From Cupriavidus necator (GTDB taxonomy: Bacteria > Pseudomonadota > Gammaproteobacteria > Burkholderiales > Burkholderiaceae): a stretch of DNA of 32,000 bases. This document shows positions 13,390 to 31,299 of this stretch, piece after piece; the stretch's first letter is position 1; each line of letters starts with the position of its first letter. The notes under the pieces were generated by a model, which saw only the letters and a program-made list of their open reading frames with translations, searched no databases and was not told the origin of the DNA. The position numbers and the translations under genes are program-made. The stretch is taken from positions 2,640,001-2,672,000 of the forward strand of contig NZ_CP066018.1 in the NCBI RefSeq assembly GCF_016127575.1. The letters are read 5' to 3'.

Positions 13390-13662
13390 TCAGACTGCGG
13401 CGAAATTGCCGGCCCATTGCGACGGGTTGACGTTGACGCGCACCGGGCCGAAGTCGGGGCCGACGATGCTGTTGTTGAGCGTGTTGACGTTGATGCTCTG
13501 CAGCTGCGCGATGTTCTGGTTGACGTTGACGGTGACGTTGGCCAGCGGGCCGACGCTGCCGACACCGCGGCTGAGCCACGAGTTGCCGCCGCGTACGGCG
13601 CACAGCGAGGCACGGTCGAGTTCTTTGCTCAGGGCGAGATCGCGGACGAGGATCGATGACAT
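13390..13662 (-). CDS. GG-leader peptide precursor, divergent Asn/Val-repeat cargo (pepA3)
   Basis: MSSILVRDLALSKELDRASLCAVRGG|NSWLSRGVGSVGPLANVTVNVNQNIAQLQSINVNTLNNSIVGPDFGPVRVNVNPSQWAGNFAAV. Good RBS (aaaggagcaccaccATG). Leader in the family register. Confidence 0.7.
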   Translation of the reverse strand: MSSILVRDLALSKELDRASLCAVRGGNSWLSRGVGSVGPLANVTVNVNQNIAQLQSINVNTLNNSIVGPDFGPVRVNVNPSQWAGNFAAV

Positions 13663-13696
13663 GGTGGTGCTCCTTTGAGTCGGGTGCCGGGGGCGG

Positions 13697-13728
13697 CTGG
13701 CGCGGAGATTGCAGCATCTGCGCGCCAG
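13697..13728 (-). other. Strong intercistronic hairpin between pepA2 and pepA3 (13-bp stem, one mismatch, 6-nt loop; no U tract)
   Basis: Plus strand: ctggcgcggagat-tgcagc-atctgcgcgccag. Confidence 0.4.
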
Positions 13729-13744
13729 CAGTGGCCAGGGCGTA

Positions 13745-14014
13745 TCAGCCGAAGATGTTGTTGGTGGCGTTCTGGTTGGTGTGCACGTCGGACTTGACGT
13801 GGTCCAGGAAGGCCGAGCCGTTGCCGTTCAGGTTGGTCACGGTCTGCATCTGCGCGATGCTTTGCGTGGCGTTGATGCTGTTGTCCAGCGACAGCCTGAT
13901 CGGCGTGTAGACGGCGGCGAAGGGCAGGTAGGCCAGGCCGCCGCGCACGGCGTGCATGCGCTTGCTGTCGAGGGTTTCGGCGGCGGGCAGGTCCTTGATG
14001 GTCAGCGTGGTCAT
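13745..14014 (-). CDS. GG-leader peptide precursor (pepA2)
   Basis: MTTLTIKDLPAAETLDSKRMHAVRGG|LAYLPFAAVYTPIRLSLDNSINATQSIAQMQTVTNLNGNGSAFLDHVKSDVHTNQNATNNIFG. 89 aa; hydrophobic residues at -4, -7, -12 relative to the GG. Confidence 0.8.
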   Translation of the reverse strand: MTTLTIKDLPAAETLDSKRMHAVRGGLAYLPFAAVYTPIRLSLDNSINATQSIAQMQTVTNLNGNGSAFLDHVKSDVHTNQNATNNIFG

Positions 14015-14068
14015 GATGGTCTCCGGTATCGGTCAGTGCGTGGGTGTGGGTGGCTGGGGCGCGTGGGC

Positions 14069-14338
14069 TCAGCCGTAGATGTTGTTGCTGGCGTTCTGGT
14101 TGGTATCCACATGCGAACGGACATGGTCCAGGAAGGCCGAGCCGTTGCCGTTCATGTTGGTGACGGTCTGCATCTGGGCGATTTCCTGCACGGCCTTGAT
14201 GCTGCTGTCGAACGACAGCTTCACCGGGCTGTAGACCGCGGCGAACGGCATGTAGGCCAGGCCGCCGCGTACGGCGTGCATGCCCTTGCGGTCCAGGGTT
14301 TCGGTGGAGGACAGGTCCTTGATGGTCAGCGTGGTCAT
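14069..14338 (-). CDS. GG-leader peptide precursor (pepA1)
   Basis: MTTLTIKDLSSTETLDRKGMHAVRGG|LAYMPFAAVYSPVKLSFDSSIKAVQEIAQMQTVTNMNGNGSAFLDHVRSHVDTNQNASNNIYG. First gene behind the sigma54 promoter. SD-like GGAG lies 7 nt before the ATG. Confidence 0.8.
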   Translation of the reverse strand: MTTLTIKDLSSTETLDRKGMHAVRGGLAYMPFAAVYSPVKLSFDSSIKAVQEIAQMQTVTNMNGNGSAFLDHVRSHVDTNQNASNNIYG

Positions 14339-14417
14339 GATGGTCTCCGGTAGAGGAAGGTACTGCCTTGGGTCTGGTTTCGAGCATCGGGTTGGTGTCG
14401 CGCTCGGGAGGTACTAA

Positions 14418-14433
14418 CGCAGGGACTGTGCCA
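14418..14433 (-). promoter_or_regulatory. Sigma54 (-24/-12) promoter of the pepA1-A4 operon
   Basis: The minus strand reads caTTGGCACAGTCCCTGCGTTag, i.e. TGGCAC-N5-CTGC with correct GG-N10-GC spacing. It is ~95 nt upstream of the pepA1 ATG and near-identical to the element at 19493-19508. Confidence 0.75.
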
Positions 14434-14464
14434 ATGCCGTTGCCGGTCCCGACCAGTCACGCGC

Positions 14465-14483
14465 AACTGCCTGAAAACACGGG
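14465..14483 (-). promoter_or_regulatory. Conserved upstream element (candidate enhancer/UAS or IHF-type site) of the sigma54 promoter, copy A
   Basis: Minus strand CCCGTGTTTTCAGGCAGTT, 31 nt upstream of TGGCAC and preceded by the A/T-rich gaaaataaat. It matches 17/19 with copy B at the same spacing. Confidence 0.35.
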
Positions 14484-14665
14484 CGATTTATTTTCGATGT
14501 CGGCTTGCGGGCACTGGCTGCGGGCGCTGCCGCATGCTACGGGTGACGGGCCGCGGCCAACAGGCGGCGTGCCGGTGTTGGCGCGGCCGCGACAGTGGCG
14601 CGCCAAAGGCGATGCGATTGGCAGGGGGCGCCCGCGCGCGGCGTTGCACGCCGGCTTCGCATGGT

Positions 14666-14694
14666 TTGCGCATGCCTTGGGTGCGCACTAGTAT
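14666..14694 (+). promoter_or_regulatory. Candidate sigma70 promoter of the kinase gene (TTGCGC-17 nt-TAGTAT)
   Basis: tTTGCGCatgccttgggtgcgcacTAGTATcc, ~50 nt upstream of ATG 14747. Confidence 0.3.
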
Positions 14695-14746
14695 CCATCT
14701 CGAAGGCAGGCATATCCGCATCGTGGGATGCGCCGTGCCAGCAACC

Positions 14747-16798
14747 ATGTCGGGGCATCCGGTGGCCAGTCTCAAAGAACTGATCCGCAAGTTCCAGAAC
14801 GGCGGTCTCTCCGACGACGAGTTTGTTGCGTCGTTCGAAACGGCGCTGGCGCAGGATCCCACCACGCCCAGCCAGGCCGCGCGCGTGGTCATCGAGGAAA
14901 ACACGCGCTTCCCGTTCCCGCCCGCGGTCTATGCCGAAGTCATGCGGCGCATCGAGCGCCGCGGCGCCACGCAGTACGACGGCGCCACCGAGGCCACGCG
15001 CCTGGCCGGCACGCAGACGGGCTCGCTGTATGCGACCTCGCCCGAGCCGGGCACGCTGCCGCAGGCGGCGCATACCAAGGGCGTGGGCGATACGCTGAAC
15101 GGCCGCTTCGTGCTGGAAGAATGCCTGGGCGTGGGCGGCATGGGCACGGTCTACAAGGCGCTCGACCTGCGCAAGCTGGAAGCCTCGGACCGCAAGCCCT
15201 ATATCGCCATCAAGGTGCTGAACCTGCAGTTCAGCGGGCACCCCAAGTCGCTGATGGCGCTGCAGCGCGAGGCGCGCAAGGCGCAGACGCTGGCGCACCG
15301 GAATATCGTCACCGTCTATGACTTCGACCGCGACGGGCCGGTGGTCTTCCTGACCATGGAATACCTGTCAGGCTCTTCGCTCAACCATGTGCTCAAGGCC
15401 CCGGGCTTCACCGGCATGCCGATGGCGCGCGCCATGTCGATCATCAACGGCATGGGCAATGCGCTGGCATACGCGCACGAGCGCGGCTTCGTGCACTGCG
15501 ACTTCAAGCCCGCCAACGTCTTCCTGACCGCCAACGGCGAGGTCAAGGTGATCGACTTCGGCATCGCGCGCGGCTTCCTGCCGCCGGCCGACGAGTCCGA
15601 CCGGACCGTGTTCGATCCCGGCTCGCTGGGTGGCATGACGCCAGCCTACGCCAGCCCGGAGATGTTCGACCATTGCGAGCCCGACCCGCGCGACGACATC
15701 TTTGCGCTGGCCTGCGTGACCTATGAACTGCTGACCGGCAAGCATCCCTACCAGCGGCTCTCGGCCAACCAGGCGCGCGATGCCGGGCTCAAGCCGGCGC
15801 AGCCGCCGCAGTTGAGCCGCACGCAGTGGAAGACCCTGCGCGAGGCGCTGTCGCTCGACCGCGAGACACGCACGCCCACCGTCGCGCGCTTCCTGCATGG
15901 CATGAGCGCGGTGCCGGTGGTGTCCACGCGGCGCCCCTCGCCGCTGATGGCAGGCGGCGCGCTGGCCGTGCTGGCGGGCGTGTCGGCGATCGGCTACTAC
16001 GCCTGGCATTCGCAGCGCCAGGCCGAAGCACCGGCTGGCGATGCGCGCGTCGAGGCCCCGGCTACACCGGTGCCCGCAGCGCCGGTCATCCCGCCCGCAC
16101 CGGCTGCCCGCCCGGCGGTGCTGTCGATGGCCGACGTCACGAAGATGCTGGCCGCGGTGCCGTGCTCGCTGCTCACCGCCACCCAGCAGGCGCAGACGTT
16201 GCGTGTGCGTGGCTTCCTGGCCGAGAGCGTCGGCGCCGTGCGGCTGCGCGAGCAGCTCAGCGCGTTGCCGGGCGTCAAGGAGCTCAAGGGCGTGTCGATC
16301 GACACCCAGCCGCTGGCCGCCGACAAGTGCGACGTGGCCACCCTGATCGCGCCGTACTGGTCGGGCCACCGCGAAGGGGGCACGGCTTCGTCGCTGCGGC
16401 TGCGCGGCCAGGGCACGCAGCTGACCGAAGGGTCACCGCTGGTGCTGGATCTGCGCACGCCGGCGCGCGACTCCTATGTCTATGTCGATTACTTCGCGGC
16501 CGACGGCAAGGTGGCGCACATGGTGCCGAGCGCGCGCGTGCCCGCCCACCAGGCGCCGCCCAGCCATGGCGCCACGGTTGGCGACGGTGGCGACTGGATC
16601 ATCTCCGGGCCGTTCGGCACCGAGCTGGTGGTGTTGCTGACCACGCCCGCGCCGCTGTTCGATGGCCGGCGCGCCGAGGTCGAGCTGCACAAGGACTACC
16701 TGAAGGCACTGGAAAAGCCGCTGGCGCAGATGGCGCGCACCTATGGCCGGGACCGCATCAGCGCGGACCTGGTGCAGATCTCCACGCGCGCGCGCTGA
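14747..16798 (+). CDS. Transmembrane Hanks-type Ser/Thr protein kinase (non-RD) with a periplasmic DUF4384-like C-terminal domain
   Basis: Track ORF 14534..16798 trimmed to ATG 14747 (MSGHPVASLKELIRKF...); GTG 14723 is an alternative. GVGGMGTVYKA, IAIKVL, HCDFKPANVF (HRD->HCD), VIDFGIA, TPAYASPE. TM segment LMAGGALAVLAGVSAIGYYAW. C-terminal SYVYVDYFAADGKVAHMVPS...ELVVLLT resembles DUF4384. Confidence 0.9.
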   Translation: MSGHPVASLKELIRKFQNGGLSDDEFVASFETALAQDPTTPSQAARVVIEENTRFPFPPAVYAEVMRRIERRGATQYDGATEATRLAGTQTGSLYATSPEPGTLPQAAHTKGVGDTLNGRFVLEECLGVGGMGTVYKALDLRKLEASDRKPYIAIKVLNLQFSGHPKSLMALQREARKAQTLAHRNIVTVYDFDRDGPVVFLTMEYLSGSSLNHVLKAPGFTGMPMARAMSIINGMGNALAYAHERGFVHCDFKPANVFLTANGEVKVIDFGIARGFLPPADESDRTVFDPGSLGGMTPAYASPEMFDHCEPDPRDDIFALACVTYELLTGKHPYQRLSANQARDAGLKPAQPPQLSRTQWKTLREALSLDRETRTPTVARFLHGMSAVPVVSTRRPSPLMAGGALAVLAGVSAIGYYAWHSQRQAEAPAGDARVEAPATPVPAAPVIPPAPAARPAVLSMADVTKMLAAVPCSLLTATQQAQTLRVRGFLAESVGAVRLREQLSALPGVKELKGVSIDTQPLAADKCDVATLIAPYWSGHREGGTASSLRLRGQGTQLTEGSPLVLDLRTPARDSYVYVDYFAADGKVAHMVPSARVPAHQAPPSHGATVGDGGDWIISGPFGTELVVLLTTPAPLFDGRRAEVELHKDYLKALEKPLAQMARTYGRDRISADLVQISTRAR

Positions 16799-16843
16799 TT
16801 GCCGCCAGCCGGCCGGCTTGCCGCTTGGCAATTGCGCCAGCCG

Positions 16844-18067
16844 CTACTTCATGTCGCGCGCCACGCGAAAGCCGTTCTGCGACTGCCGCACGCTGGGGCT
16901 GTACTTGAAGCGCGTGGACGACACCATGTAGTTCGCCCCCTCGCGCCAGGAGCCGCCGCGGATCACGCGTGCGCCGCAGGCGTTCTCGTTCCATACGCGC
17001 CCGTCGGCGGGCGCGCCCTTGTATGAGCTGTGCCAGCAATCGGCCACCCATTCCCACACGCTGCCGTTGACGTCGTGCAGGCCGTACGGGTTGGCCGCGA
17101 ATGTCCCGACCGCGGCCGGCGCATCCTGGCTCCATGGGTCGCCGCAGTCCTTGCAGTTGGCATTGCCCTTGCGCATCTGGTCGCCCCACCAGTAGGCACT
17201 GGCGGTGCCGCCGCGCGCTGCGTATTCCCATTCGGCCTCGGTGGGCAGCCGGTAGGACTTGCCGGTGGTCTTGCTGAGCCAGGCCACGTACTGCTGCGCG
17301 TCGTCCCAGCTGACGTCGCGCACCGGCGCGTTCTTCGCGCTGTCGGCGACGGTGGGGACGCGCTGGCAGCCGCCGGCGTCGGCGCAGGCATTCCATTGCT
17401 CGACCGTGACCTCATAGCGGCCGATGGCAAACGGCTGGCCGATGGTGACGTGGTGCGGGGGCTTCTCGGCGGGATCGCTGGCACTGCTGCCCATGGTGAA
17501 GCTGCCCGCCGGCAGGGGGACCAGCACCGGGCAGGCCGGGCAATCGCGGATCTCGCCGGTGCGCAATGTGGCGCTGACCGCGCCGCCCGCCGCCGCGCCC
17601 GGGCGCAGCGATGCCGTTGCCGGTGGCGCAGCAGGTGGCGCAGCAGGTGACGCAGCGGGCGGCGATGCCGGACGCGCTGCCGCGGCCGGTGCCGGCGGCC
17701 GCGTGACCTGGCCCCCGGCAGAGGTGCCGGAGCGGGGCGGCGGTGCGGGCGCCTGGGCCTTGGGTGCGGAGGCGGACGCCGCCAGCCGCTCCAGGCGCGC
17801 CCTGGCCAGCACCGCGAAGCGTCCGTTGGGGTACTGCTTCAGGTAGGCCTCGTAGTCGCCGGCATAATTGCTGTTCTTGATCGATTCCCAGAAGCTCAGC
17901 TCGTACTGCTCCTCGGTGTTCTTGGGCATGATGCCGGCGAGCAGCAGCGGTTCCGTGGCCGCGGGGCCGGCGGCAGCGGCGGCCGCCTGCGCGGGCAGCG
18001 GCGCGGCGGCGAGCATGGCGGCCATGGCGGCCGTGCGTACGACTGGTAGATTGCGCCACATCTTCAC
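16844..18067 (-). CDS. Secreted FGE-sulfatase-fold (SUMF1/EgtB/PvdO family) protein with an N-terminal helical module and a Pro/Ala linker
   Basis: Signal peptide [58 protein letters not shown] module. FGE domain: [76 protein letters not shown]. Confidence 0.85.
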
Positions 18068-18355
18068 ACCTCGCTGGAGCCGCGGCGATCCCGCTGCATG
18101 CCGGTAGCTGCCGGCACATGCGTCGGGGGCGCATTGTGGTGTTGCCGAGACGTCGACCGGCTTGCTTCAAGATAGCACAGCGCGTGTGTCTCCGGCGGGG
18201 CATTGGCACGCAACCGCGACGCGCCGGGTTCGCTTTTTCCGTGCTTGCGACCTAACCTGAATGACGAATCGCCGAGCGCTGACCAACAAGCAACAAGAAT
18301 GGGCTTTCGGGACAACGTGATCGGGTTTCGGACTGTTATCCGGGAGGCGCCGCGT

Positions 18356-18781
18356 ATGTCCAGACGATTCCTGTTCCGCCTGCTGGCGGTTGCCGCCCTC
18401 GCCGCGGCCCCGTCGCTGTCGCTGTCGACGGCAGCCCCGCCCAATGCCGAGGCCTACATCATCTGGCCGCACGATGGCACGGTCATCAGCGGCGGCAAGT
18501 TCTGGGTGCGCATGGGCCTGCGCAATATGGGCGTGTGCCCCAAGGGCGTCGAGTCGCCGCGCTGCGGGCACCACCACCTGCTGGTCGACACCGAGCTGCC
18601 GCCGCTGGACAAGGAAATCCCTTCGGACAAGAACCACCTGCACTTCGGCGCGGGCGAGACCGACGCGCGCATTGAGTTGCCGCCCGGCAAGCACACGCTG
18701 CAATTGCTGATGGGCGATGCCAAGCACGTGCCGTTCGAGCCGCCGATCTATTCGAAGAAGATCACGATCACGGTGAAATAG
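18356..18781 (+). CDS. Secreted DUF4399-family protein (copy 1)
   Basis: Track ORF trimmed to ATG 18356 (RBS gggagg). Signal peptide MSRRFLFRLLAVAALAAAPSLSLSTA. GHHHLLVD, HLHFGAGETD, LPPGKHTLQLLMGD motifs. Confidence 0.75.
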   Translation: MSRRFLFRLLAVAALAAAPSLSLSTAAPPNAEAYIIWPHDGTVISGGKFWVRMGLRNMGVCPKGVESPRCGHHHLLVDTELPPLDKEIPSDKNHLHFGAGETDARIELPPGKHTLQLLMGDAKHVPFEPPIYSKKITITVK

Positions 18782-18840
18782 CGGTGCAGCGCGCGCCGCG
18801 GAAGCCGAACCTAGGCCGATCAGCAAACAGGGAGAGCACC

Positions 18841-19269
18841 ATGTCCAGACTACTTGCCGCGGCTGTCTTTGCCGCCAGCCTGCTGCTGTCAGCGGTGGTG
18901 CAGGGTGGTTCGACGCCGGCGCCGCCCAACGCCTACCTGTATATCGGCTGGCCCAACGACGGGCAGACGATGCCCGCGGGCAAGCCATTCAAGGTCTGGT
19001 TCGGGTTGCGCAATATGGGGGTGGCGCCAAAGGACGTGAAGTATCCCAATACTGGGCACCATCACCTGCTTGTCGATGTGGACCTGCCGCCGATGGACAA
19101 GGAGATCCCCAATGACCGCAATCACCTGCATTTCGGGGCGGGGGAGACCGAGACCATGATCGAGCTGCCGCCCGGCAAGCATACGCTGCAGCTGCTGATG
19201 GGGGATGACAAGCACATTCCCACCAACCCGCCGGTTTATTCGAAGAGGATCACGATCTACGTGAAGTGA
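18841..19269 (+). CDS. Secreted DUF4399-family protein (copy 2, tandem paralog)
   Basis: Track ORF trimmed to ATG 18841 (RBS gggagag). Signal peptide MSRLLAAAVFAASLLLSAVVQG. Same GHHHLLVD / HLHFGAGETE / LPPGKHTLQLLMGD motifs; roughly two thirds identical to copy 1 by eye. Confidence 0.75.
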   Translation: MSRLLAAAVFAASLLLSAVVQGGSTPAPPNAYLYIGWPNDGQTMPAGKPFKVWFGLRNMGVAPKDVKYPNTGHHHLLVDVDLPPMDKEIPNDRNHLHFGAGETETMIELPPGKHTLQLLMGDDKHIPTNPPVYSKRITIYVK

Positions 19270-19289
19270 TCCGGACCTTGCGGTGACGG

Positions 19290-19314
19290 CGGCGCGCAAT
19301 GCGCCGTTTTTTTT
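19290..19314 (+). terminator. Rho-independent terminator after the DUF4399 pair
   Basis: cggcgc-gcaat-gcgccg followed by T8. Confidence 0.7.
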
Positions 19315-19443
19315 GTGCGCTGGCGCCGCAAGTGTCGGTCGCCATCCAACATCGACGGGCAAGCTGTTGGCTGCGCGCCGCCAGTGCGCGCTGACGCAGG
19401 CTCGCCGCGCCTCCGCCGCCGGCGCTGGCGGCAAGAAAAATTC

Positions 19444-19462
19444 CCCGTGTTTACAGGCACTT
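19444..19462 (+). promoter_or_regulatory. Conserved upstream element of the sigma54 promoter, copy B
   Basis: CCCGTGTTTACAGGCACTT, 30 nt upstream of TGGCAC and preceded by agaaaaatt. It pairs with copy A (14465-14483, minus strand). Confidence 0.35.
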
Positions 19463-19492
19463 CCGTGATCCGCGCGGCCATGGCGCCGGGGC

Positions 19493-19508
19493 TGGCACGC
19501 TCCCTGCG
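19493..19508 (+). promoter_or_regulatory. Sigma54 (-24/-12) promoter of pepB1-pepB2
   Basis: gcTGGCACGCTCCCTGCGAT: TGGCAC-N5-CTGC with GG-N10-GC spacing. The ~69-nt leader to ATG 19588 is highly similar to the pepA1 leader (cctcc.gagcgcgacaccaacccgatgctcga...ccttcctctacc.ggagaccatcATG). Confidence 0.75.
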
Positions 19509-19587
19509 ATTGTCCCTCCTGAGCGCGACACCAACCCGATGCTCGACCAACCACCAAGGTAACACCTTCCTCTACCCGGAGACCATC

Positions 19588-19857
19588 ATGACCACGCTGA
19601 CCATCACCGACCTGACCACCGTCGACACCCTGGACCGCAAGGGCATGCTCGCCGTTCGCGGCGGCCGCACCCTGCTCCCGTTCATGCCGGTGTACCACCC
19701 GCTCAACCTGTCGTTCGACCACAGCATCACCGCCGTGCAGGAAATCGCGCAGATGCAGACCGTCACCAATATGAATGGCAACGGCTCGGCCTTCCTGGAC
19801 CACGTGAAGTCCGACGTGCACACCAACCAGAACGCCACCAACAACATCTACGGCTGA
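19588..19857 (+). CDS. GG-leader peptide precursor (pepB1)
   Basis: Track ORF 19315..19857 trimmed to ATG 19588. MTTLTITDLTTVDTLDRKGMLAVRGG|RTLLPFMPVYHPLNLSFDHSITAVQEIAQMQTVTNMNGNGSAFLDHVKSDVHTNQNATNNIYG. Confidence 0.8.
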   Translation: MTTLTITDLTTVDTLDRKGMLAVRGGRTLLPFMPVYHPLNLSFDHSITAVQEIAQMQTVTNMNGNGSAFLDHVKSDVHTNQNATNNIYG

Positions 19858-19904
19858 GCCCCTGCGCGCCAGCTAGCTGCTTCTTACCGATACCGGAGAC
19901 CATC

Positions 19905-20174
19905 ATGACCACGCTGACCATCAAAGACCTGTCCGCCACCGAAACCCTCGACAGCAAGCGCATGCATGCCGTGCGCGGCGGCCTGTCGTACCTGCCCTTT
20001 GCCGCCGTGTATGCGCCGATCAAGCTCGCGTTCGACAGCAGCATCACCGCCAAGCAGGAAATCGCGCAGTTGCAGTCCGTGACCAACCTGAACGGCAATG
20101 GCTCGGCCTTCCTCGACCATGTCCGTTCGCATGTGGATACCAACCAGAACGCCAGCAACAATATCTATCGTTGA
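19905..20174 (+). CDS. GG-leader peptide precursor (pepB2)
   Basis: MTTLTIKDLSATETLDSKRMHAVRGG|LSYLPFAAVYAPIKLAFDSSITAKQEIAQLQSVTNLNGNGSAFLDHVRSHVDTNQNASNNIYR. Confidence 0.8.
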   Translation: MTTLTIKDLSATETLDSKRMHAVRGGLSYLPFAAVYAPIKLAFDSSITAKQEIAQLQSVTNLNGNGSAFLDHVRSHVDTNQNASNNIYR

Positions 20175-20194
20175 GAAGCTTGTTGAGATGGCGC

Positions 20195-20229
20195 AGCGCC
20201 GCGGGGGCGTCCCCGCGGCGCTTTTGTTG
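20195..20229 (+). terminator. Rho-independent terminator/attenuator between pepB2 and the NodT gene
   Basis: agcgccgcgggg-gcgt-ccccgcggcgct followed by tttgttg. Confidence 0.6.
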
Positions 20230-20358
20230 AGCCCTTGCATATCGGGGTTGGAGCGCGCGCCAGCGCGCACCACAATACAGACAGACTTCGCGGCCCCGGC
20301 ATGCCTTGGGGTATCTCCAGCGCATCCCGCCCGCCGCCGTCGCACGCAGGAACCCATC

Positions 20359-21822
20359 GTGCCTGAATCCATCACTGCCTCGCCCGCGGTTGCGTCAACC
20401 GCCGCGCCGCACCGTACCGCCTGGCTGGCCGCGCTGGCCGCCTGCGCGGCATTGCTGGCAGGCTGCGCCGATTTCCGGCCGCCGGTGTACCAGCGCCCGG
20501 AAACCCCGGCCAAGGCCGAATGGACGCGCCAGGAATCGATCACGGTATCGCCGGCCGAAACGGTGCAGCCCAACTGGTGGCTGGGCTTCAAGGATCCTTA
20601 CCTGAACAGGCTGATCGACCAGGCGCTTTACGGCAACTACGACATCAAGGTGCTGGCGGCGCGCATCCGCGTGGCCAACGCGCAGATCGGCGAGGCCCGT
20701 GCCGGCGGGCTGCCGGTGATCGATATCGGCGCCGGTGCGAGCTTCGAGAAGAGCACCGGGCAGAAGTCCACCTGGACCTATAACGCCGGCGCCCAGCTGA
20801 ACTGGGACATCGACATCTGGGGCAAGGTCGAGAAGGGCGTGCAGGCGCAGACCGCCGAGTTCCGCGCCACCGAGGCCGACTGGCGCGCCGGCTACCTGAC
20901 GCTGGTGTCCAATGTATCGACCACTTACTTCCAGATCCTGCAGTTCGACGAGCAGATCGAGCAGCAGGCGCGCACCGTGGCCAAGAACGGGCAGATCCTG
21001 TCGACCTACCAGGCCATGTACCAGAACGGCCTGGTGCCAAAGATCCGGGTGATGCAGCAGCAGGCGGAAATCAACCGCCTGAACAAGGACCTGCTGGAGC
21101 TGCGCCGTTCGCGCGATGTGGCTGAAAACGCGCTGGCCACGCTGGTCGGTGTGCCCGCGGGCAATCTCAAGGTGCCGGCGGGGCGCCTGCAGGACCGCGT
21201 GCAGCCGCCCGCGGTGCCGGCCGGGCTGCCGTCGCAACTGCTGGCGCGCCGCCCGGACGTGGTGGCGGCGGAATACCGCGTGCTGGCCGCGTACAACATC
21301 GTTGGCCAGGCCCGTTTGGCGCAGTTGCCCACCATCAGCCTGACCGCGCGCGGCGGCACCGCCAGCTTTGCGCTGAGCGACCTGCTCAAGTCATTCACCT
21401 TCGGCTTCATGCCCAGCATCAACCTGCCGATGCTCGACCCGAGCGTGCGCGCGCGCGTGAAGACCACCGAGGCGCAGGTGGGCGTGGCGGAAAACGAATA
21501 TGGCCGCACCGTGATGACCGCGTTCGAAGAGGTGGAGAGCGCACTGGTCAATGTCGACGCGCACAAGAAGCAGCGCATCGAGCTGCAGCAGCAGGTTGAG
21601 CAGCTGCGCGTCGTGTCCGCGCAGATCGAGGCGCAACTGAAGGAGGGCGTGGTCTCGCAGCTGGAAGTGTTCGAGACCGAGCGCTCGCTGCTGGCCGCGC
21701 AACTGCAGTTGTTGGCGGTCCACCAACAGATCCTGGCCGACACCGTCACCCTGTACAAGGCGCTTGGCGGTGGCTGGCCCGATACCGACGTGCGCAACGC
21801 GGCGTCGAATCCGCCGCAGTAA
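20359..21822 (+). CDS. NodT-family (OprM/TolC-like) outer-membrane efflux lipoprotein
   Basis: Track ORF trimmed to GTG 20359 (aggaa RBS 5 nt upstream). Lipobox LLAGC|ADF. WWLGFKDPYLNRLIDQALYGNYDIKVLAARI is the typical NodT N-terminus. Two OEP repeats; ends LYKALGGGW. Confidence 0.85.
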   Translation: MPESITASPAVASTAAPHRTAWLAALAACAALLAGCADFRPPVYQRPETPAKAEWTRQESITVSPAETVQPNWWLGFKDPYLNRLIDQALYGNYDIKVLAARIRVANAQIGEARAGGLPVIDIGAGASFEKSTGQKSTWTYNAGAQLNWDIDIWGKVEKGVQAQTAEFRATEADWRAGYLTLVSNVSTTYFQILQFDEQIEQQARTVAKNGQILSTYQAMYQNGLVPKIRVMQQQAEINRLNKDLLELRRSRDVAENALATLVGVPAGNLKVPAGRLQDRVQPPAVPAGLPSQLLARRPDVVAAEYRVLAAYNIVGQARLAQLPTISLTARGGTASFALSDLLKSFTFGFMPSINLPMLDPSVRARVKTTEAQVGVAENEYGRTVMTAFEEVESALVNVDAHKKQRIELQQQVEQLRVVSAQIEAQLKEGVVSQLEVFETERSLLAAQLQLLAVHQQILADTVTLYKALGGGWPDTDVRNAASNPPQ

Positions 21823-21956
21823 GTGCTGCCAACGGTGCTGTAGGGCGGTTCAGGTGATGCCGGCGCCTGCAACGCGTTGCGCAACGCGCCCATAGCCCTG
21901 GCCACTGCCCCGCTGCATGTGCCGCTGCCGCGCCAACCGCGCGTTCCGCGTCCCGA

Positions 21957-21984
21957 TTGACTAGCCTTTGCCGTCGCCTACTAT
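21957..21984 (+). promoter_or_regulatory. Candidate sigma70 promoter (TTGACT-16 nt-TACTAT) of the FHA-HlyD-PPIase-ABC-EBP operon
   Basis: gaTTGACTagcctttgccgtcgccTACTATgttc, ~65 nt upstream of ATG 22049. Confidence 0.4.
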
Positions 21985-22048
21985 GTTCTTAGTCGCTTCA
22001 TCCCCTGGCCTGCCGCCGCGGCAGCCGCGCTGTTGGCTTGCTGGAAAC

Positions 22049-24658
22049 ATGGCTCCTGACGAAGCACTGATCATGGAAATGCCGGTGAAAATGGCCCAGG
22101 GATTCACGCGGGAATTCTCTCAGGATCTGGCGCAGGAATTCGATGTGTTCCTGACGCCCGTGTCGCGCCCGGAGCTGGGCGAGATCCGCATCGACGAAGA
22201 CCTGTTCGCCGTCGGACGCAGCGAACTGCCGTTCGCCGCCTACCCCGAAGACCTGGCCGCACCGCTGTCGCGCCGGCATGCGCGCATCTTCGCCGAGCAT
22301 GGCGCGGTCTATGTGGCGGATCTCGGCAGCAAGAACGGCACGCGCGTGAACGGCGCGGCGGTGGCGCGCCAGCCGGCGCAGCTCAGCGATGGCGATGAGG
22401 TGGCCTTCGGGCCGGCGCTGTCGTTCCGGGTCCGGCTGTCGCCGCGCGCGGCGCAGCCCGAGCCGCCGCGGGTAGCGGTGACGTTGGTGCCCGAGCGCGG
22501 CGATGTCGGGCTGCAGCCGCTGCACGTGGACGGCTTCCCCTACCTGATCAGCAAGGCCGACGACGCCTTCGCGCGCTACCGCGACAGCTATCCGCAGCAG
22601 GTCAACTACCTGTCGCGGCGCCACGCGCACGTGTACCTCAAGGGTGGCGTGCCATTCGTTGAGGACCTGGGCAGCACCAACGGCACCTTCGTCAACGGCA
22701 AGCGCCTGGCCGACCACGGCGTGCCGCTGGACGACGGCGACCTGATCGCCTTTGGCGGCAACCACTTTGTCTACAAGGTGCAGGTCCAGCACACCGGCGA
22801 CGGCGATGCCACCGCGACGCATTCGATGCTGCAGCCAGTCGCTGCGCCCGACACGCCGCCCGCATCCCAGGCTTCGCCCGTGCGCGACGAGGATGACCGC
22901 ACTACCTTTGTCGGTGCCGCCGATTCCTTCCTCGACATCTTCTGCGTCGACTATGCCGCGCAGCAGGACGACGAGGTCAACGCCGAGGCCGAGGCACAGG
23001 CCGCGGCGGCCACGGCCGCGCACGACGGCGCGCAGGCACGCCGCAAGCGCGGGCGTGCCGCGCTGCTGCTGGCCGAAGGTGCCAGGCAGTTCGGCCTGAA
23101 CGATTCCGTACGCACGCGGCGCGCGGCGCGATGGGGCGGCGCGTTGCTGTTGCTCGCGCTGCTGGCGGGGGCGGCCGTGTACTGGCGCGGTGCGCCGGAG
23201 CGCGAAGTGCAGGCGCTGTTTGCCGCAGGCGATCACGCGCGCGCGGCGCAGGCCGCCGACAACTACCTGGCGCGTCATCCCGGCGATGCCCAGGTGCAGG
23301 CCATCGGCACCGAGGCACTGATGCGTGCCGACGTGCCCGCTTTCGCCGCCAGGCTGAAGGCCGGTGATTTCAGCGGCGCCGATGCCGTGCTGGCCCGGAT
23401 GCGCAAGCTCAGCGCGCACAATGCCGATGCGCGGCCGCTGGTGGCGGAACTCGACTGGATCGGCCGGCTCGAACGCTTCACCGCGCAGCGCGGCGCCGAC
23501 ACGCCGATCCGCCTCTACACCGACGAGGCGCCGATCCGGCAACTGCTGGCGTACTGGAACCAGGACACCACCGCGCACCAGCGCGCGCTCGGGCGCATCG
23601 CGGCCGATGTGCCGGCGTTCCGCGATCTCTACGCCGATGCGCTCAGCGACGTGCGTCGCCTGCAGAACGACGCCTCGGTCTACCTGGCGGCGATCGACCG
23701 GCTGAACACCACCATTGCCGCCGAACTCGGCCGCGACCGCCCGGAGGCATTGCAGCCCGTCATCGCCGAGTACCGCGAGAAGTATCCGCGCCTGGCCGGG
23801 CTGGACCGCGTGCAGTCAGACCTGGACCGCTACACCGCGCTGATGCAGGCACTGCGCGCGCGCCGGCCCGGGCCGCTGGTGGCGCGCCTTGCCGACAGCC
23901 GCTTCGCCACGCCGCCGTTCCAGGCGCAGTTCAACCAACTGGCCGCGCGCCTGCCGCCGCCGGAGATGGTGCGCCAGTATGCCGGTGCGGCCAGGGCGTG
24001 GCAGCAGGGCGACAGCGCCGCAGCGCTCGCGGGGATCAAGCAGATCAGCGGCGGCCCCTGGGCCGAGGACCTGGCGCGCGACCTGTCGCACAAGCAGAAG
24101 GTGGCGGCGCAGTACGCCGAGCTGCAGTCCGCGCGCGGCAGCAAGGGCTATGAGGACCGGCTGCTGGGCTTCTACGCCATGCTCGATGCCGCCGATGACG
24201 GCCACTTCGCCAAGGCGGTCGAGGCCGACGTCAACGGCGTGCGCGACAGTGCCCTGCGGCGCGCGCGGGAACTGATGGGCAGCGCCGTCGCCGCATGGAA
24301 GCAATACCGCAGCAATGGCGTGATCGGCAGCGAGCAGCGGCTCGAGCCCGGCATCTCGCCCAGGTTCCGCGCGCAGGCCCGGTTGCTGTCGCAGGCACAG
24401 GATGACGCGCGCCAGGGCATGCGCATCTTCACGCAACTGCGCGCGGGCGAAAGCGCCGACCTGGCGCAACTCGCCAAGATCGAGGAAGAGATCCGCGCCG
24501 AGGCCGACCAGCAGCGGCACGCGCTGCGCGAGTTGCGCACCGTGCTCGATCCCGCCGTGCTCAAGACCAAGCTGGAGCTGATCGGCGGTGAAGACACCGG
24601 CAAGGCGCCGGAGCCGGCCGCGGCTGCCGCGGCGCCACAGCAAGCGGGGCAGCCATGA
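22049..24658 (+). CDS. Membrane-anchored double-FHA-domain protein with a large helical (TPR-like) periplasmic region
   Basis: Start ambiguous (ATG 22049, 22073, 22079 or 22091; 22091 has ggtga upstream). FHA1: VGRSELPF...LSRRHARIF...DLGSKNGTRVNG. FHA2: LISKADDAF...LSRRHAHVY...DLGSTNGTFVNG (G-R replaced by S-K). TM segment WGGALLLLALLAGAAVYW. The stop overlaps the HlyD ATG (ATGA, 24655-24658). Confidence 0.8.
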   Translation: MAPDEALIMEMPVKMAQGFTREFSQDLAQEFDVFLTPVSRPELGEIRIDEDLFAVGRSELPFAAYPEDLAAPLSRRHARIFAEHGAVYVADLGSKNGTRVNGAAVARQPAQLSDGDEVAFGPALSFRVRLSPRAAQPEPPRVAVTLVPERGDVGLQPLHVDGFPYLISKADDAFARYRDSYPQQVNYLSRRHAHVYLKGGVPFVEDLGSTNGTFVNGKRLADHGVPLDDGDLIAFGGNHFVYKVQVQHTGDGDATATHSMLQPVAAPDTPPASQASPVRDEDDRTTFVGAADSFLDIFCVDYAAQQDDEVNAEAEAQAAAATAAHDGAQARRKRGRAALLLAEGARQFGLNDSVRTRRAARWGGALLLLALLAGAAVYWRGAPEREVQALFAAGDHARAAQAADNYLARHPGDAQVQAIGTEALMRADVPAFAARLKAGDFSGADAVLARMRKLSAHNADARPLVAELDWIGRLERFTAQRGADTPIRLYTDEAPIRQLLAYWNQDTTAHQRALGRIAADVPAFRDLYADALSDVRRLQNDASVYLAAIDRLNTTIAAELGRDRPEALQPVIAEYREKYPRLAGLDRVQSDLDRYTALMQALRARRPGPLVARLADSRFATPPFQAQFNQLAARLPPPEMVRQYAGAARAWQQGDSAAALAGIKQISGGPWAEDLARDLSHKQKVAAQYAELQSARGSKGYEDRLLGFYAMLDAADDGHFAKAVEADVNGVRDSALRRARELMGSAVAAWKQYRSNGVIGSEQRLEPGISPRFRAQARLLSQAQDDARQGMRIFTQLRAGESADLAQLAKIEEEIRAEADQQRHALRELRTVLDPAVLKTKLELIGGEDTGKAPEPAAAAAAPQQAGQP

Positions 24659-26037
24659 AGGACGATGCCCGCCAGGGCGGCCTCAAGCCACTCTCCGAGG
24701 CGCTGGAAGACCACAGCGCCGAGGGCATCGGCCTGCTGAGTGCCGAGCCGTCGCGCCTGGGGCTGCTGACCATCGTCACGACTTTCACGCTGGTGTTGTG
24801 CGGGCTGGTGTGGTCCTTCGTCGGGCATGCCGATGTCATTGTCACGGCGCAGGGCACGCTGGCGCCGGAATCCGAGGTGCGCCGCTTCTATGCCCCGGTG
24901 GACGGCGAGCTGGCCGACCTCTACGTGGCCGAGGGGCAACCGGTGTCCAAGGACGACGTGCTGGCGCGCCTGAATGCGCGCGGCGCGATCGAGGCCGCGG
25001 CCAACGCGCTGGAAGCGCAGCTCAAGCTGGAAGACTCCGAGCGCGAATGGAAGCAGTTCCCCGACAAGAAGGCGCTGATGGAACGCCGCGCGGCGGCGCT
25101 CAAGCAGCAGATCGACGTGGCCACGCGCCAGCACGAGACCCGCATCGCCGAAGGCACCACGCGGCTTGCCGAACAGCAGCGCGCGCAGTTGCAGGAAGCG
25201 CGCAGCAACCTCGAGAACGCCCGGCGCGCGCGCGAATTCGCGCGCCAGGAGCAGGACCGATACGCGCGCCTGCTGGCGTTGCCGGGTGGCGGTGGCGTTT
25301 CGCAGTCGCAGGTGGATGCCAAGCGCGCCGCGGCGCAGGACGCGGAGAACAACCTGCGCGTGGCGCAGTCGCGGCTGACGGAGCTGGACGCACGCCTGGG
25401 CCGCGAGCTTACCCAGGCCAGTTCCCAGCTAGAAAGCAGCGGCCAGGACCTGGCCGGGCTGCGCGTGCAGTACGACGCGGCGCTGCGCGAGATCGCCAAC
25501 ACCGAGGACAAGCTGCGCCTGCAGGTGCAGACCGCGCGCCTGGTGGCGGACGCGGCAGCGCGCATCCGCTTCGAGAACATCGACAAGGACAACTTCCTGC
25601 TGATCCTGGCGCCGGTGTCGGGCGTGATCACCGATGTCACCTCCACCCAGCGCGGCGACAAGGTGCAGGCCAACACGCCGCTGGGCGGCATTGCCCCCAA
25701 GGATGCGCGCCCGGTGGTGAAGATCGTCATCGCCGAGCGTGACCGCGCTTTCCTGCGCGAGGGCCTGCCGGTCAAGCTCAAGTTCAGTGCCTTCCCGTAC
25801 CAGCGCTACGGGATCATCGAGGGCACGCTGGAATTCATCTCGCCCGCGACCAAGCCGGGCGGACCCGACAAGCAGCCGGTCTACGAGGGCCGCGTGCGGC
25901 TGGCGCGCGACTACTACGCGGTGGCCGACAACAAGTATCCGCTGCGTTACGGCATGACCGCCACGGCAGAGATCGTGGTGCGCGAACGCCGCCTGATCGA
26001 CCTGGGGCTTGACCCCTTCCGCGAGGTGGCCGGCTAG
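24655..26037 (+). CDS. HlyD-family membrane-fusion / periplasmic adaptor protein
   Basis: N-terminal TM (LGLLTIVTTFTLVLCGLVWSF), long coiled-coil (residues ~110-300), C-terminal beta-barrel motifs (ISPVSG-like APVSGVITDV, VKIVIAERD, LKFSAFPYQRYG, GMTATAEI). Confidence 0.85.
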   Translation: MKDDARQGGLKPLSEALEDHSAEGIGLLSAEPSRLGLLTIVTTFTLVLCGLVWSFVGHADVIVTAQGTLAPESEVRRFYAPVDGELADLYVAEGQPVSKDDVLARLNARGAIEAAANALEAQLKLEDSEREWKQFPDKKALMERRAAALKQQIDVATRQHETRIAEGTTRLAEQQRAQLQEARSNLENARRAREFARQEQDRYARLLALPGGGGVSQSQVDAKRAAAQDAENNLRVAQSRLTELDARLGRELTQASSQLESSGQDLAGLRVQYDAALREIANTEDKLRLQVQTARLVADAAARIRFENIDKDNFLLILAPVSGVITDVTSTQRGDKVQANTPLGGIAPKDARPVVKIVIAERDRAFLREGLPVKLKFSAFPYQRYGIIEGTLEFISPATKPGGPDKQPVYEGRVRLARDYYAVADNKYPLRYGMTATAEIVVRERRLIDLGLDPFREVAG

Positions 26038-26114
26038 CGCAGCGGGGAGAGACTGGCGCAGAACATCGGGACAGCCCGGCGCGTAACCGCGCGGGCGTCA
26101 AAGGAGCCGAGAAA

Positions 26115-26867
26115 ATGACTGGTATTGTGCGTATCGACGACGAGGTGCTTGGCTTCGAGGAGTTCGTGCGCTTGCTCAAGCTGACCGGACAGTTCGAAGG
26201 GCTGGTCGAGCAGATGGTGCGCGACAAGCTGACCGTGCACGCGGCAAAGCGGCAGGGCGTGGTGGTCACGCCGGAGGAGATCCAGGAACGCGCGGACCAG
26301 TTCCGCCGCGTGCAGGGCCTGCATCGCGCCGCAGACATGAATCACTACCTGGATGCGCTGAACATCAGCCTGGACGAATTCGAGGCCTTTGTCACCGACA
26401 GCCTGTACCAGGAGCGGATGATGGAGCAGGTGTGCAGCGAGGCCGCGGTGCAGGCGTACTTTGCGCTCAACTCGCCGCGCTTCGACAGCATCGAGGTCAG
26501 CCATATCGTGGTCGACAGCGAGGGCAAGGCCAAGGAGCTGATCTCGTACCTGCAGGATGATCCCGATGCCTTTGCCGAGATGGCGCGCGAGCATTCCATC
26601 GCCGACACGCGCGAGCGCGGAGGCGAGATCGGCAAGGTGCTGCGCGGCTCGCTCAAGACCGATATCGAGGCCAAGGTGTTCAATGCCGAGCCTGGCGACC
26701 TGCTGGGACCGTTCCCGTCGGCTGACCGTTCCTTCTTCGAAGTCTTCCTGGTGCGCGAAAAACACCCGGCCACCCTCGATAGCGAGGTGGCGGTGGAAGT
26801 GCGCCGCCTGCTGCGCGAAGACTGGCTGATGGCCAGGGCGCAGGAACATGTCATCGAAGCCCGCTAG
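26115..26867 (+). CDS. Cytoplasmic PpiC/parvulin-type peptidyl-prolyl cis-trans isomerase
   Basis: No signal peptide (MTGIVRIDDEVLGFEEF...). Rotamase domain SHIVVDSEGKAKELISYLQDDPDAFAEMAREHSIADTRERGGEIGKVLRGSL...EPGDLLGPFPSADRSFFEVFLV. The 3' end overlaps the ABC gene start by 20 nt. Confidence 0.8.
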   Translation: MTGIVRIDDEVLGFEEFVRLLKLTGQFEGLVEQMVRDKLTVHAAKRQGVVVTPEEIQERADQFRRVQGLHRAADMNHYLDALNISLDEFEAFVTDSLYQERMMEQVCSEAAVQAYFALNSPRFDSIEVSHIVVDSEGKAKELISYLQDDPDAFAEMAREHSIADTRERGGEIGKVLRGSLKTDIEAKVFNAEPGDLLGPFPSADRSFFEVFLVREKHPATLDSEVAVEVRRLLREDWLMARAQEHVIEAR

Positions 26868-29800: not shown

Positions 29801-29958
29801 CGGTCATCATCGCGCACCGGCTCAGCACCATCATGCAGGCCGATAAGATCCTGGTGCTGTATGAAGGCGCCATCGTCGAGCAGGGCCGGCATGAGGAGCT
29901 GATCGAGCGCAAGGGCATGTATTTCCAACTGGTGCAGAAGCAACTGAGCGCAGCATGA
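26848..29958 (+). CDS. Peptidase-containing ABC transporter (PCAT): 2 x cNMP-binding-like domains + C39 Cys-peptidase + 6-TM ABC domain + NBD
   Basis: 1036 aa. CNB-like 1 is about aa 30-140 and CNB-like 2 about aa 160-285. C39 domain: EEMDC(334)GAACLAMICRHYG, HWEGYHYVVVYG, WVADP (Cys/His/Asp present). NBD: GRSGSGKTT, LSGGQIQRLCIARAL, LLVFDEATSALD, IIAHRLS. Confidence 0.92.
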   Translation: MSSKPASASGEPAAPPAPDQPEAGSALAAFLATVEILSVLVPEELARLAEAAQVLTFGFGDTVCNAGEAAPGLFIVKSGSVRVFNEEHGKEISMGVRKAGEVFADIALLRDYRHESSVRASGKTELLLIPRSVGEPVVAGNPAALAFITSYVAISSAGGFVARLFDLRGKLDKQELEDAVRSVGVKRVAAGKEILKQDGREDRRLYVVRQGTVRIVRSEEGSEYPLATLGQGDIFGERACVMRQEQLASAIADTDVRLLVIPEKTVQLILERNPRLREVLEERIRVLDRELHRQKKLAERRKRPVLLDLHSKPELGEKLIRRFALVEQAEEMDCGAACLAMICRHYGIPMTLGKLRELANVTTQGATLDSLARAGEALGFTTRGVQCTRDSLMGFELPFIVHWEGYHYVVVYGISSRWVWVADPAIGFRKMSAEEFERGWSGTCLLFTPGESMTQLSVSRSPWLRFIGYLAPYKRILAHLFLATFVIQMLGVVPPLIIQNILDGVVVHQNVGLLNLLIAGLIISNVFSQLMSTIRAYLANFMVRNMDFAMMSHFFKHTLSLPLSFFAKRKTGDIFARFQENQTIRAFLTESTVTTALNLLMVFIYFTIMFLYNVKLTLLLIAFVIPIAALTVVVTPKVKTYAREVFAASTDAKAYLMETLGGAETVKGMGIERPVRLRWERKYAKALDAQYRAQAFHILVGLVSQLLNAATTIAVLWVGATLVLERELTIGQLIAFNAFMGSVLAPLMGLVALWGQLNDAGVAMERLGDVLDLEPEQKPQDVLSRVMLPDLQGEIVMKDLYFRYGGEDTPYVLENISFAIRPGEMVAIVGRSGSGKTTLAKLLVGFYKPTEGSMTVDGYDLNVIDAAFYRAQVGYVMQSNLLFSGTIAENIACGDDSPDRRRIEEVARMADAHAFISKLPLGYEQVVGERGIGLSGGQIQRLCIARALYHDPRLLVFDEATSALDTQSESNILANMQEILRGRTAVIIAHRLSTIMQADKILVLYEGAIVEQGRHEELIERKGMYFQLVQKQLSAA

Positions 29959-31271: not shown

Positions 31272-31299
31272 GGCGGCGAGGCCGCCGGCGGTCGTGCCT

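Follow-up and report, generated by a model that had tools for sequence, protein, structure and literature searches.

The peptide loci and their gene neighbourhood

The window, that is, the whole stretch of 32,000 nucleotides analysed here, is a high-GC betaproteobacterial segment that carries two loci of small tandem genes (A and B). These genes encode 89-aa precursors, each of which begins with a double-glycine leader (MTTLTIKDL...AVRGG). The genes of both loci and the end of locus B are arranged as follows.

19588-19857, forward strand: pepB1, an 89-aa precursor with the double-glycine leader MTTLTITDL...AVRGG
19905-20174, forward strand: pepB2, the second 89-aa precursor of locus B
20195-20230, forward strand: strong intrinsic terminator after pepB2, found by terminator scan, with a 12-bp stem (11 G-C pairs) followed by TTTTGTTG
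14338-14069, reverse strand: pepA1, the first peptide gene of locus A
14014-13745, reverse strand: pepA2, locus A
13662-13390, reverse strand: third gene of locus A, divergent

Since a strong terminator follows pepB2, the predicted main product of locus B is a short, bicistronic mRNA bounded by two hairpins. A promoter of its own is absent in front of pepB2, which has only the ACCGGAGACCATCATG ribosome-binding region in common with pepB1. The close relatives of the peptides are all from Cupriavidus, and a profile search extended the family to at least 1375 cluster representatives. Around the peptide loci, a domain search identified a TolC-like OEP, a protein with two FHA domains, HlyD, a PPIase and an ABC exporter that combines a C39 peptidase with two cNMP-binding domains, as well as a PP2C phosphatase, a Ser/Thr kinase, FGE-sulfatase-like proteins and DUF4399. 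The same gene set flanks peptide arrays in Duganella aceris and in a Pseudomonadota MAG, and part of it is present at the arrays of Paraburkholderia.

Double-glycine and class II microcin operons encode C39-peptidase ABC transporters, an MFP and a TolC-like protein (PMC12219008; for the cNMP-domain HetC, PMC10986499). The loci described here share with them the tandem small precursors with a ...RGG leader and an exporter of the C39-ABC type encoded at the same locus, in this case with cNMP-binding domains and together with HlyD and OEP. They differ from these operons in that the 89-aa peptides match no family in Pfam or NCBIfam, and in that sigma-54 promoters are predicted within a kinase, phosphatase and FHA cassette. 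The literature searched holds no description of any member of the peptide family and no paper on the locus; the cassette as a whole, in which sigma-54 and Ser/Thr signalling would lead to arrays of GG-leader peptides and an exporter of the C39 type with cNMP domains, appears to be undescribed.

The probable sigma-54 promoter and its upstream elements

The elements in front of pepB1, their locus-A twins and the regulator gene are listed below.

19333-19351, forward strand: distal dyad TGTCGGTCGCCATCCAACA, a candidate UAS, with one mismatch to TGTTGG-N8-CNYCA on the minus strand
19365-19383, forward strand: proximal dyad TGTTGGCTGCGCGCCGCCA, a candidate UAS and an exact match to TGTTGG-N8-CNYCA
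19433-19465, forward strand: A/T-rich conserved block with core CCCGTGTTTACAGGCA at 19444-19459, an IHF-like bending site between UAS and promoter
19492-19508, forward strand: sigma-54 -24/-12 element CTGGCACGCTCCCTGCG, with GG at 19494-95 and GC at 19506-07
19519-19521, forward strand: predicted start of transcription, placed by the usual sigma-54 spacing 12-14 nt past the -12 GC (counted from its C)
14544-14594, reverse strand: dyad pair of locus A (14562-14544 and 14576-14594), twin of that of locus B
14418-14434, reverse strand: twin promoter of locus A, TTGGCACAGTCCCTGCG, an exact motif match
29955-31271, forward strand: sigma-54 enhancer-binding protein (Pfam Sigma54_activat, E 1.9e-70) with GAFTGA and a C-terminal HTH

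The sequence at 19492-19510 reads CTGGCACGCTCCCTGCGAT, in which the two dinucleotides of the core have the GG-N10-GC spacing typical of sigma-54 promoters. An earlier note on this DNA, made from the letters alone, had attributed a common TGGCAC-N5 sigma-54 architecture to the two loci, and a scan of the window agrees with it: TGGCAC-N5-YTGC occurs exactly at just two sites in 32 kb, against 0.43 expected, namely as TGGCACGCTCCCTGC at 19493-19507 (forward strand) and at 14433-14419 (reverse strand). At either locus, the site is 95 nt upstream of the ATG with which the first peptide gene begins. When one mismatch is tolerated, the motif is at chance level (18 in the window and 20 expected), so the significance of the promoter comes from its position and conservation and not from the motif count.

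Both were followed in about 110 related loci (27 genomic, 80 metagenomic, plus four long contigs). Of 117 genes that open a peptide array, 97 have TGGCA-N8-GC at 60-115 nt upstream of the ATG; of 131 later genes, one does, a case that is not accompanied by the rest of the module. The -24/-12 element of the first gene is kept across Cupriavidus, Pandoraea, Paraburkholderia, Duganella and metagenomes. A composite pattern that adds the start of the transcript (TGGCA-N8-GC, N10-14, GAG, N10-19, CTC) is found twice in the window, against 0.25 expected, and both sites are the promoters of loci A and B; it is found four times in the Duganella locus and three times in the Paraburkholderia locus, where 0.07 is expected. 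Four arrays of Duganella each have a copy of their own, as do three arrays of Paraburkholderia.

The upstream elements are kept in position as well. The proximal dyad lies about 128 nt before the T of TGGCAC and the distal one about 160 nt before it. TGTTGG, the inner half of the dyad TGTTGG-N8-CNYCA, was found at -126 to -130 from the T of TGGCA in approximately 62 of 92 distinct upstream regions; a second dyad, which ends in CCAACA, lies 13 nt farther upstream, and CCAACA occupies the position of the distal dyad relative to the proximal one in 68 of 91 regions. The proximal dyad is also kept between locus A and locus B. Just two copies of the A/T-rich block CCCGTGTTTNCAGGCA are present in the window, one for each promoter, and 13 of its 33 columns are invariant in Cupriavidus. 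In the wider family, its core TCA[AG]N4TT[AG] stands at -39 to -41 from TGGCA in 47 of 92 upstream regions and almost nowhere else; the core of locus B has ACAG instead of TCAG, that is, one extra mismatch. The consensus for IHF is WATCAANNNNTTR, and sigma-54 promoters generally have their UAS some 80-150 nt upstream and, in many cases, an IHF site between UAS and core. By their resemblance to the consensus and their conserved positions, the TGTTGG/CCAACA dyads are likely to be activator sites, and the A/T-rich core is IHF-like. Two other signals in this part of the analysis were set aside. The terminator scan flagged the upstream block as a possible reverse-strand terminator with a 5-bp stem and a T run, and distant relatives have no hairpin there; a TGTTGG...CCAACA palindrome at 21710-21728 lies inside the OEP gene, with no promoter at the spacing of the family, and was taken as chance.

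The protein encoded at 29955-31271 has an AAA+ domain with KKGAFTGA, a C-terminal HTH and a short N-terminus, in which no recognisable sensor domain was found. Its gene is linked to peptide arrays in Duganella and in a MAG, which makes it a candidate activator of the promoters of loci A and B. Two dyads, a bending site, a -24/-12 core and a linked activator thus add up to the standard enhancer-dependent architecture. In enhancer-dependent promoters such as glnAp2, nifH and Pu of the TOL plasmid, the same GG-N10-GC core is found, with the same paired dyads more than 100 nt upstream, an IHF-like core between them and the promoter at fixed spacing, and a GAFTGA-bearing AAA+ activator with a C-terminal HTH encoded nearby. 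The pepB1 promoter matches the sigma-54 consensus YTGGCACG-N4-TTGCW except for a C instead of T before the GC. Unlike the promoters of the glnAp2, nifH and Pu type, its target is a pair of small GG-leader peptide genes, and the activator has a short N-terminus and belongs to a Ser/Thr kinase, PP2C and FHA cassette instead of being paired with a histidine kinase. As a promoter, it is an ordinary member of a well-known kind. Literature searches for transcription start sites or the RpoN regulon of C. necator returned nothing relevant; on sequence grounds, 19493-19507 is very probably a functional sigma-54 promoter, which would depend on RpoN and on an activator.

A conserved leader with a predicted 5' hairpin

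The sigma-54 start is usually about 12 nt past the -12 GC. If transcription starts 12 nt after the C of this dinucleotide, the predicted leader of pepB1 is 69 nt long (19519-19587), and its features are these:

19520-19545, forward strand: predicted 5'-terminal hairpin, obtained for both loci in the MFE fold as well as the centroid fold, and again in the RNAalifold consensus; pairs U19520.G19545, G21-C44, A22-U43, G23-C42, C24-G41, G25.U40, C26-G38 and G27-C37, with A39 bulged
19528-19536, forward strand: hairpin loop ACACCAACC
19546-19577, forward strand: G-poor, C/A-rich linker, which holds an AAGGT-AAC-ACCTT stem (19556-19568) and a CCTTCCTCT tract (19565-19573)
19578-19581, forward strand: Shine-Dalgarno GGAG, 6 nt before the ATG
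14381-14406, reverse strand: twin hairpin of locus A, CGAGCGCGACACCAACCCGATGCTCG, before pepA1

The leaders of A and B are colinear, as the earlier note had described, with 84% identity over 19509-19587 (88% in the first 40 nt, 59% in the middle and 95% in the last 22 nt). The alignment of the two loci runs from about 160 nt upstream of the promoter through the stop codon of the second gene. Within and around it, identity is 49% far upstream, 62% in the upstream block, 48% in the spacer before -24, 82% in the promoter, 83-85% in the coding sequences, 79% between the genes and 32% downstream. The identity of the leader thus equals that of the coding sequences, as would be expected if the likeness of the leaders were a mere trace of duplication or gene conversion with no function, and a leader of C. 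lacunae (L012) is a mosaic of B-type and A-type variants that suggests some conversion. Against this stands the random-level identity of the sequence between the conserved blocks: the flanking non-functional DNA (spacer, far upstream and downstream) does not have the identity of the leader. In addition, A-type (TGGCACAGTCC...GTTAGTACC) and B-type (TGGCACGCTCC...GATTGTCC) variants each recur in other species; the split between A and B therefore predates speciation, and the duplication is old enough for neutral sequence between the blocks to have been randomised. The core of the hairpin is also kept in other genera and in metagenomes where the peptides are about 40-50% identical. Descent from a common copy is scarcely credible as the whole reason for the likeness.

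The distribution of invariant columns among the leaders of Cupriavidus (n=24) supports conservation beyond what a promoter needs, as had been claimed from the two leaders of the window. In the region 19520-19546, 21 of 27 columns are invariant, more than in any other part. The promoter follows with 13 of 18, and in the 25-nt spacer that separates -24 from the upstream block none of the 25 is.

In the wider family, GAG was found 12-13 nt after the -12 GC and CTC 11-18 nt past GAG in all of the 88 distinct leaders. With a start 12-14 nt after the GC, the hairpin would begin right at the 5' end. In the window, its covariance model matches at E below 1e-4 only the site in the pepB1 leader and 14377-14410. 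Across the two loci, the outermost pair is U-G or C-G. The pair adjoining the core is G.U in 53 leaders, A-U in three and G-C in three. One clade has a stem lengthened to 7 bp (GGUGAGC/GCUCACC), and in one group a C inserted in the 3' arm shifts the register, so that GCA pairs with UGC, and the bulge varies between C and U. The loop differs in length and sequence between clades and genera, and within Cupriavidus ACACCAACC is nearly invariant. The earlier note had quoted the GAGC...GCUC segment just as conserved sequence; the element that appears to be selected in it is the hairpin.

The GAGC...GCTC inverted repeat could instead be read at the DNA level by a repressor whose operator it would form across the start site, and its invariant half-sites directly downstream of -12 occupy a common position for a repressor. 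A dimeric DNA-binding protein, however, would not tolerate a distance of 11-18 nt between half-sites, and the symmetry of the DNA ends beyond 4 bp, with a G.T at the fifth position in the same 53 leaders. The register-shift and bulge variants keep the pairing of the RNA and not the symmetry of the DNA. Given the G.U pairs and the variable spacing of the arms, an RNA stem fits better than an operator, which we regard as improbable.

The diverse hairpins were counted on the covariance-model alignment, in which 93% of the cells are paired; a plain MAFFT alignment was left out, as it mis-registered the 3' arm. The covariation analysis of homologous leaders that the earlier note had suggested gave no significant result, since the stem is invariant: 95 of 500 shuffles reach the observed score and four of the six pairs never vary. 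The alignment of Cupriavidus contains no two-sided (compensatory) changes in the stem either. Invariant pairs speak neither for nor against structure. Native hairpins are just about 1.6 kcal/mol more stable than chimeras made of halves from different types, and the folding energies of the whole leaders are not exceptional (z -0.9 to -1.8). Rfam gave no match at the gathering score in the whole window, nor up to E 10 in 19400-19950. What speaks for structure is thus a pair of complementary blocks that never vary, the first at a fixed offset and the second at a changing one, and not compensatory change. On this comparative basis, the hairpin is probably a selected element at the level of the RNA, and from the predicted folds we infer that it forms in the transcript.

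Possible roles in transcript stability or regulated translation

The best overall explanation, to which we give a probability of about 0.6, is a sigma-54 promoter followed by a hairpin that protects the 5' end of the mRNA. The activator encoded in the cassette (29955-31271) would bind the two TGTTGG/CCAACA dyads, whose centres lie some 120 and 150 nt before -24, and the IHF-like A/T-rich block, about -40 from -24, would bend the DNA and thereby allow the activator to remodel the closed sigma-54 complex. Control of the activator itself is probably exerted by way of the Ser/Thr kinase, the PP2C phosphatase and the FHA proteins encoded nearby. Transcription from 19519-19521 would then yield the short bicistronic pepB1-pepB2 mRNA that ends at the strong terminator (20195-20222), and the same module would drive locus A. 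In the predicted fold, the hairpin takes up the first 26 nt of the mRNA and leaves at most 1-2 nucleotides unpaired at the 5' end; the G-poor, C/A-rich spacer and GGAG come next. Such a hairpin would shield the 5' end from the removal of pyrophosphate and from 5'-end-dependent attack by RNase E. Together with the hairpin of the 3' terminator, it would make the peptide mRNA long-lived and abundant once the promoter fires.

Stem-loops at the 5' terminus are an established class of mRNA stabilisers, for example those of ompA and papA, in which the hairpin lies 0-2 nt from the 5' end and is followed by an unstructured region and the ribosome-binding site (PMC3997798). The pepB1 hairpin has the same arrangement with respect to its predicted 5' end, and these stem-loops appear to be its closest analogue; by this analogy, mRNA stabilisation is a tentative assignment of function, held at somewhat less than even odds. 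In contrast to ompA and papA, the stem sequence of the peptide leaders is invariant across a large family, which a pure structural protector does not need. A structural stabiliser is free to covary, and an invariant stem in front of peptides that are about 40% identical suggests either sequence-specific recognition or a second constraint on one of the arms. In an intermediate view, one arm may be fixed by another constraint, for instance as the initially transcribed sequence, and the other by pairing with it.

Sequence-specific recognition would make the hairpin a site for an RNA-binding protein or a small RNA that sets translation or decay. In none of the 88 distinct leaders does the GAG/CUC core or the C-G pair next to it change, in contrast to loops, linkers and peptides; among the Cupriavidus leaders, the loop too is almost constant; and the G-poor, C/A-rich linker and the mostly paired Shine-Dalgarno leave room for regulated access of ribosomes. 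Yet the conserved cassette encodes no recognisable RNA-binding protein, the loop is not kept between genera, so that recognition would have to read the stem, no Rfam family is matched, and the alternative pairing of the 3' arm with the Shine-Dalgarno never exceeds 3 bp. We consider a site of this kind unlikely, albeit the main rival to stabilisation and well above the operator. The fuller proposal, that the hairpin is a dedicated cis-regulatory RNA read by a specific factor and that the output of peptide is gated both at the sigma-54 promoter and in the mRNA, is a little more doubtful still. Post-transcriptional control through the leader, at which the earlier note had hinted, may reasonably be supposed, and passive stabilisation of the mRNA fits the data at least as well.

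The linker between the hairpin and the Shine-Dalgarno has 18-36 nt and contains 7.6% G in the 88 leaders, against 34.6% in the window. With 42% C, its composition is rut-like, and the hairpin lies upstream of it, an order that would suit a transcription attenuator in which RNA polymerase pauses at the hairpin, Rho loads on the spacer and continuation requires efficient translation of the peptide gene. At 18-36 nt, however, the linker is far below the length of typical Rho loading sites, and the Shine-Dalgarno and ATG come immediately after it. The hairpin is not followed by a U tract (GACCAACC or GAAACC in its place), and the terminator scan found no intrinsic terminator in the leader. Attenuation is thus very improbable.

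GGAG stands 6-8 nt ahead of the ATG in all 88 leaders and is predicted to be mostly paired, with a probability of being unpaired of 0.26 on average and 0.13-0.15 in the window. The leader is therefore not obviously built for maximal access of ribosomes, which counts against the explanation preferred here, a sigma-54 promoter with a protective 5' hairpin. Shuffled linkers give the same probability as native ones, and for this reason we claim neither a designed mask of the Shine-Dalgarno nor a designed open one; a leader built to expose it was rejected on the same figures. In leaders that sequester the Shine-Dalgarno, such as RNA thermometers and riboswitches, this element is likewise paired, and in Cupriavidus a UUCC or CUCU tract can pair with GGAG. 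Here, in contrast to those leaders, the pairing is weak (4 bp), the CU tract is not conserved in the family and Rfam holds no match.

With the promoter and leader taken together, the analysis provides a regulatory map of an unannotated peptide family (two dyads, bending site, core, predicted start, hairpin, Shine-Dalgarno and terminator) and, for bacteria of the Cupriavidus necator type and their relatives, connects the making of exported GG-leader peptides with signalling through sigma-54 and Ser/Thr-kinase/FHA proteins. A hairpin that stabilises the mRNA could be used directly to engineer expression in C. necator; one that is read by a factor would be a new regulatory RNA. Were peptide output gated twice, the loci would represent a new class of RNA motif and a new peptide signalling or bacteriocin system, in a cassette widespread in Burkholderiales.

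Some further elements of the leader were considered and rejected. The small stems pointed out in the earlier note are indeed present in the sequence, but AAGG/CCTT is not conserved: it is broken in five of 24 distinct close relatives, with no compensation in leaders L001/2/4/7 (AACG) and L008/10 (CCAT), and it is missing from the wider family. The CCTTCCTC tract upstream of the Shine-Dalgarno is likewise present, but specific to a lineage and not conserved family-wide. The CU tract CCUUCCUC was dismissed as a conserved anti-Shine-Dalgarno on the same ground, UUCC/GGAG pairing being confined to leaders of the Cupriavidus type. A three-way switch, in which CUC of the 3' arm would alternate between the 5' arm and the Shine-Dalgarno, was discarded since just 3 bp are possible. 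An upstream ORF from an ATG in the 3' arm of the hairpin (CGATGCTC) was rejected too, as 17 of the 88 leaders do not have that ATG and no Shine-Dalgarno precedes it; in B it has seven codons, in A it enters pepA1 in another frame, and only the frame in Paraburkholderia agrees.

Gene starts of the peptide arrays

The ribosome-binding region and the first ~8 codons (CCGGAGACCATCATGACCACGCTGACCATCA) are nearly identical across all four genes for the double-glycine (GG) leader peptide precursors, synonymous sites included. The near-identical starts lie at:

19588-19612, plus strand, start of pepB1
19905-19929, plus strand, start of pepB2
14338..14314, minus strand, start of pepA1
14014..13990, minus strand, start of pepA2

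This suggests that the genes have undergone gene conversion or that their translation-initiation region is constrained. In Cupriavidus lacunae (locus L012, 352-446), a promoter of the locus-B type (TGGCACGCTCC) is fused to a downstream segment of the locus-A type (GTTAGTACCTCC), a mosaic suggesting that sequence passes occasionally from one locus to the other by gene conversion.

Locus A holds a further, divergent peptide gene after pepA2:

13390-13662, minus strand, third GG-leader peptide gene (MSSILVRDL...AVRGG)

Its product has ~30% identity to that of pepB1, and the gene carries its own AAGGAG and no -24/-12 element; comparable third genes at other loci are likewise without this promoter.

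The 3' arm of the predicted leader hairpin contains an ATG that opens a reading frame of 7 codons in locus B (19536-19565), a long out-of-frame one in locus A (14390..14340) and an in-frame extension in Paraburkholderia (L027). The annotation of one database entry, P0058 (145 aa), includes an extension of this kind.

Borders of locus B and the enclosing cassette

Two intrinsic terminators flank the locus-B peptide genes:

19288-19316, plus strand, terminator of the DUF4399 gene (GGCGGCGCGCAATGCGCCGTT, then T8), directly before the distal upstream dyad
20195-20230, plus strand, strong terminator separating pepB2 from the OEP gene; 11 of the 12 base pairs in its stem are G-C, and a T tract follows

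The first is the left boundary of the locus-B regulatory region. Transcription of the transporter genes beyond the second terminator therefore depends on either read-through or a separate promoter.

The peptide arrays are enclosed by a multi-gene cassette (13390-31962) that is conserved in Cupriavidus, Duganella and a MAG (L108, L110 and L111 as comparison loci), and for which a literature search found nothing. Its members comprise a Ser/Thr kinase with DUF4384, FHA proteins, PP2C, a sigma-54 activator, OEP, HlyD and a cNMP-binding C39 ABC exporter, together with FGE-sulfatase-like proteins, DUF4399 and a PPIase. In Duganella, 11 peptide genes are spread over four arrays.

Choosing the longest ORF seems to place the start of the kinase gene (14534; 14534-14760) and that of the OEP gene (20098; 20098-20190) too far upstream. 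Since the former overlaps the locus-A upstream dyads and the latter pepB2, the real starts are probably further downstream.

Further motif matches in the window

21710-21728, perfect palindrome TGTTGG-N7-CCAACA resembling the upstream dyads, inside the OEP gene at its 3' end
21899-21913, weak GG-N10-GC match, TGGCCACTGCCCCGC
17158-17172, plus strand, good sigma-54-like match with one mismatch, TGGCATTGCCCTTGC

The palindrome lies ~240 nt ahead of an FHA-protein gene and may be a chance occurrence, given that its spacing to the GG-N10-GC match is unlike that of the peptide promoters. The sigma-54-like match, located inside an FGE-sulfatase-like ORF of the opposite strand, is probably due to chance.
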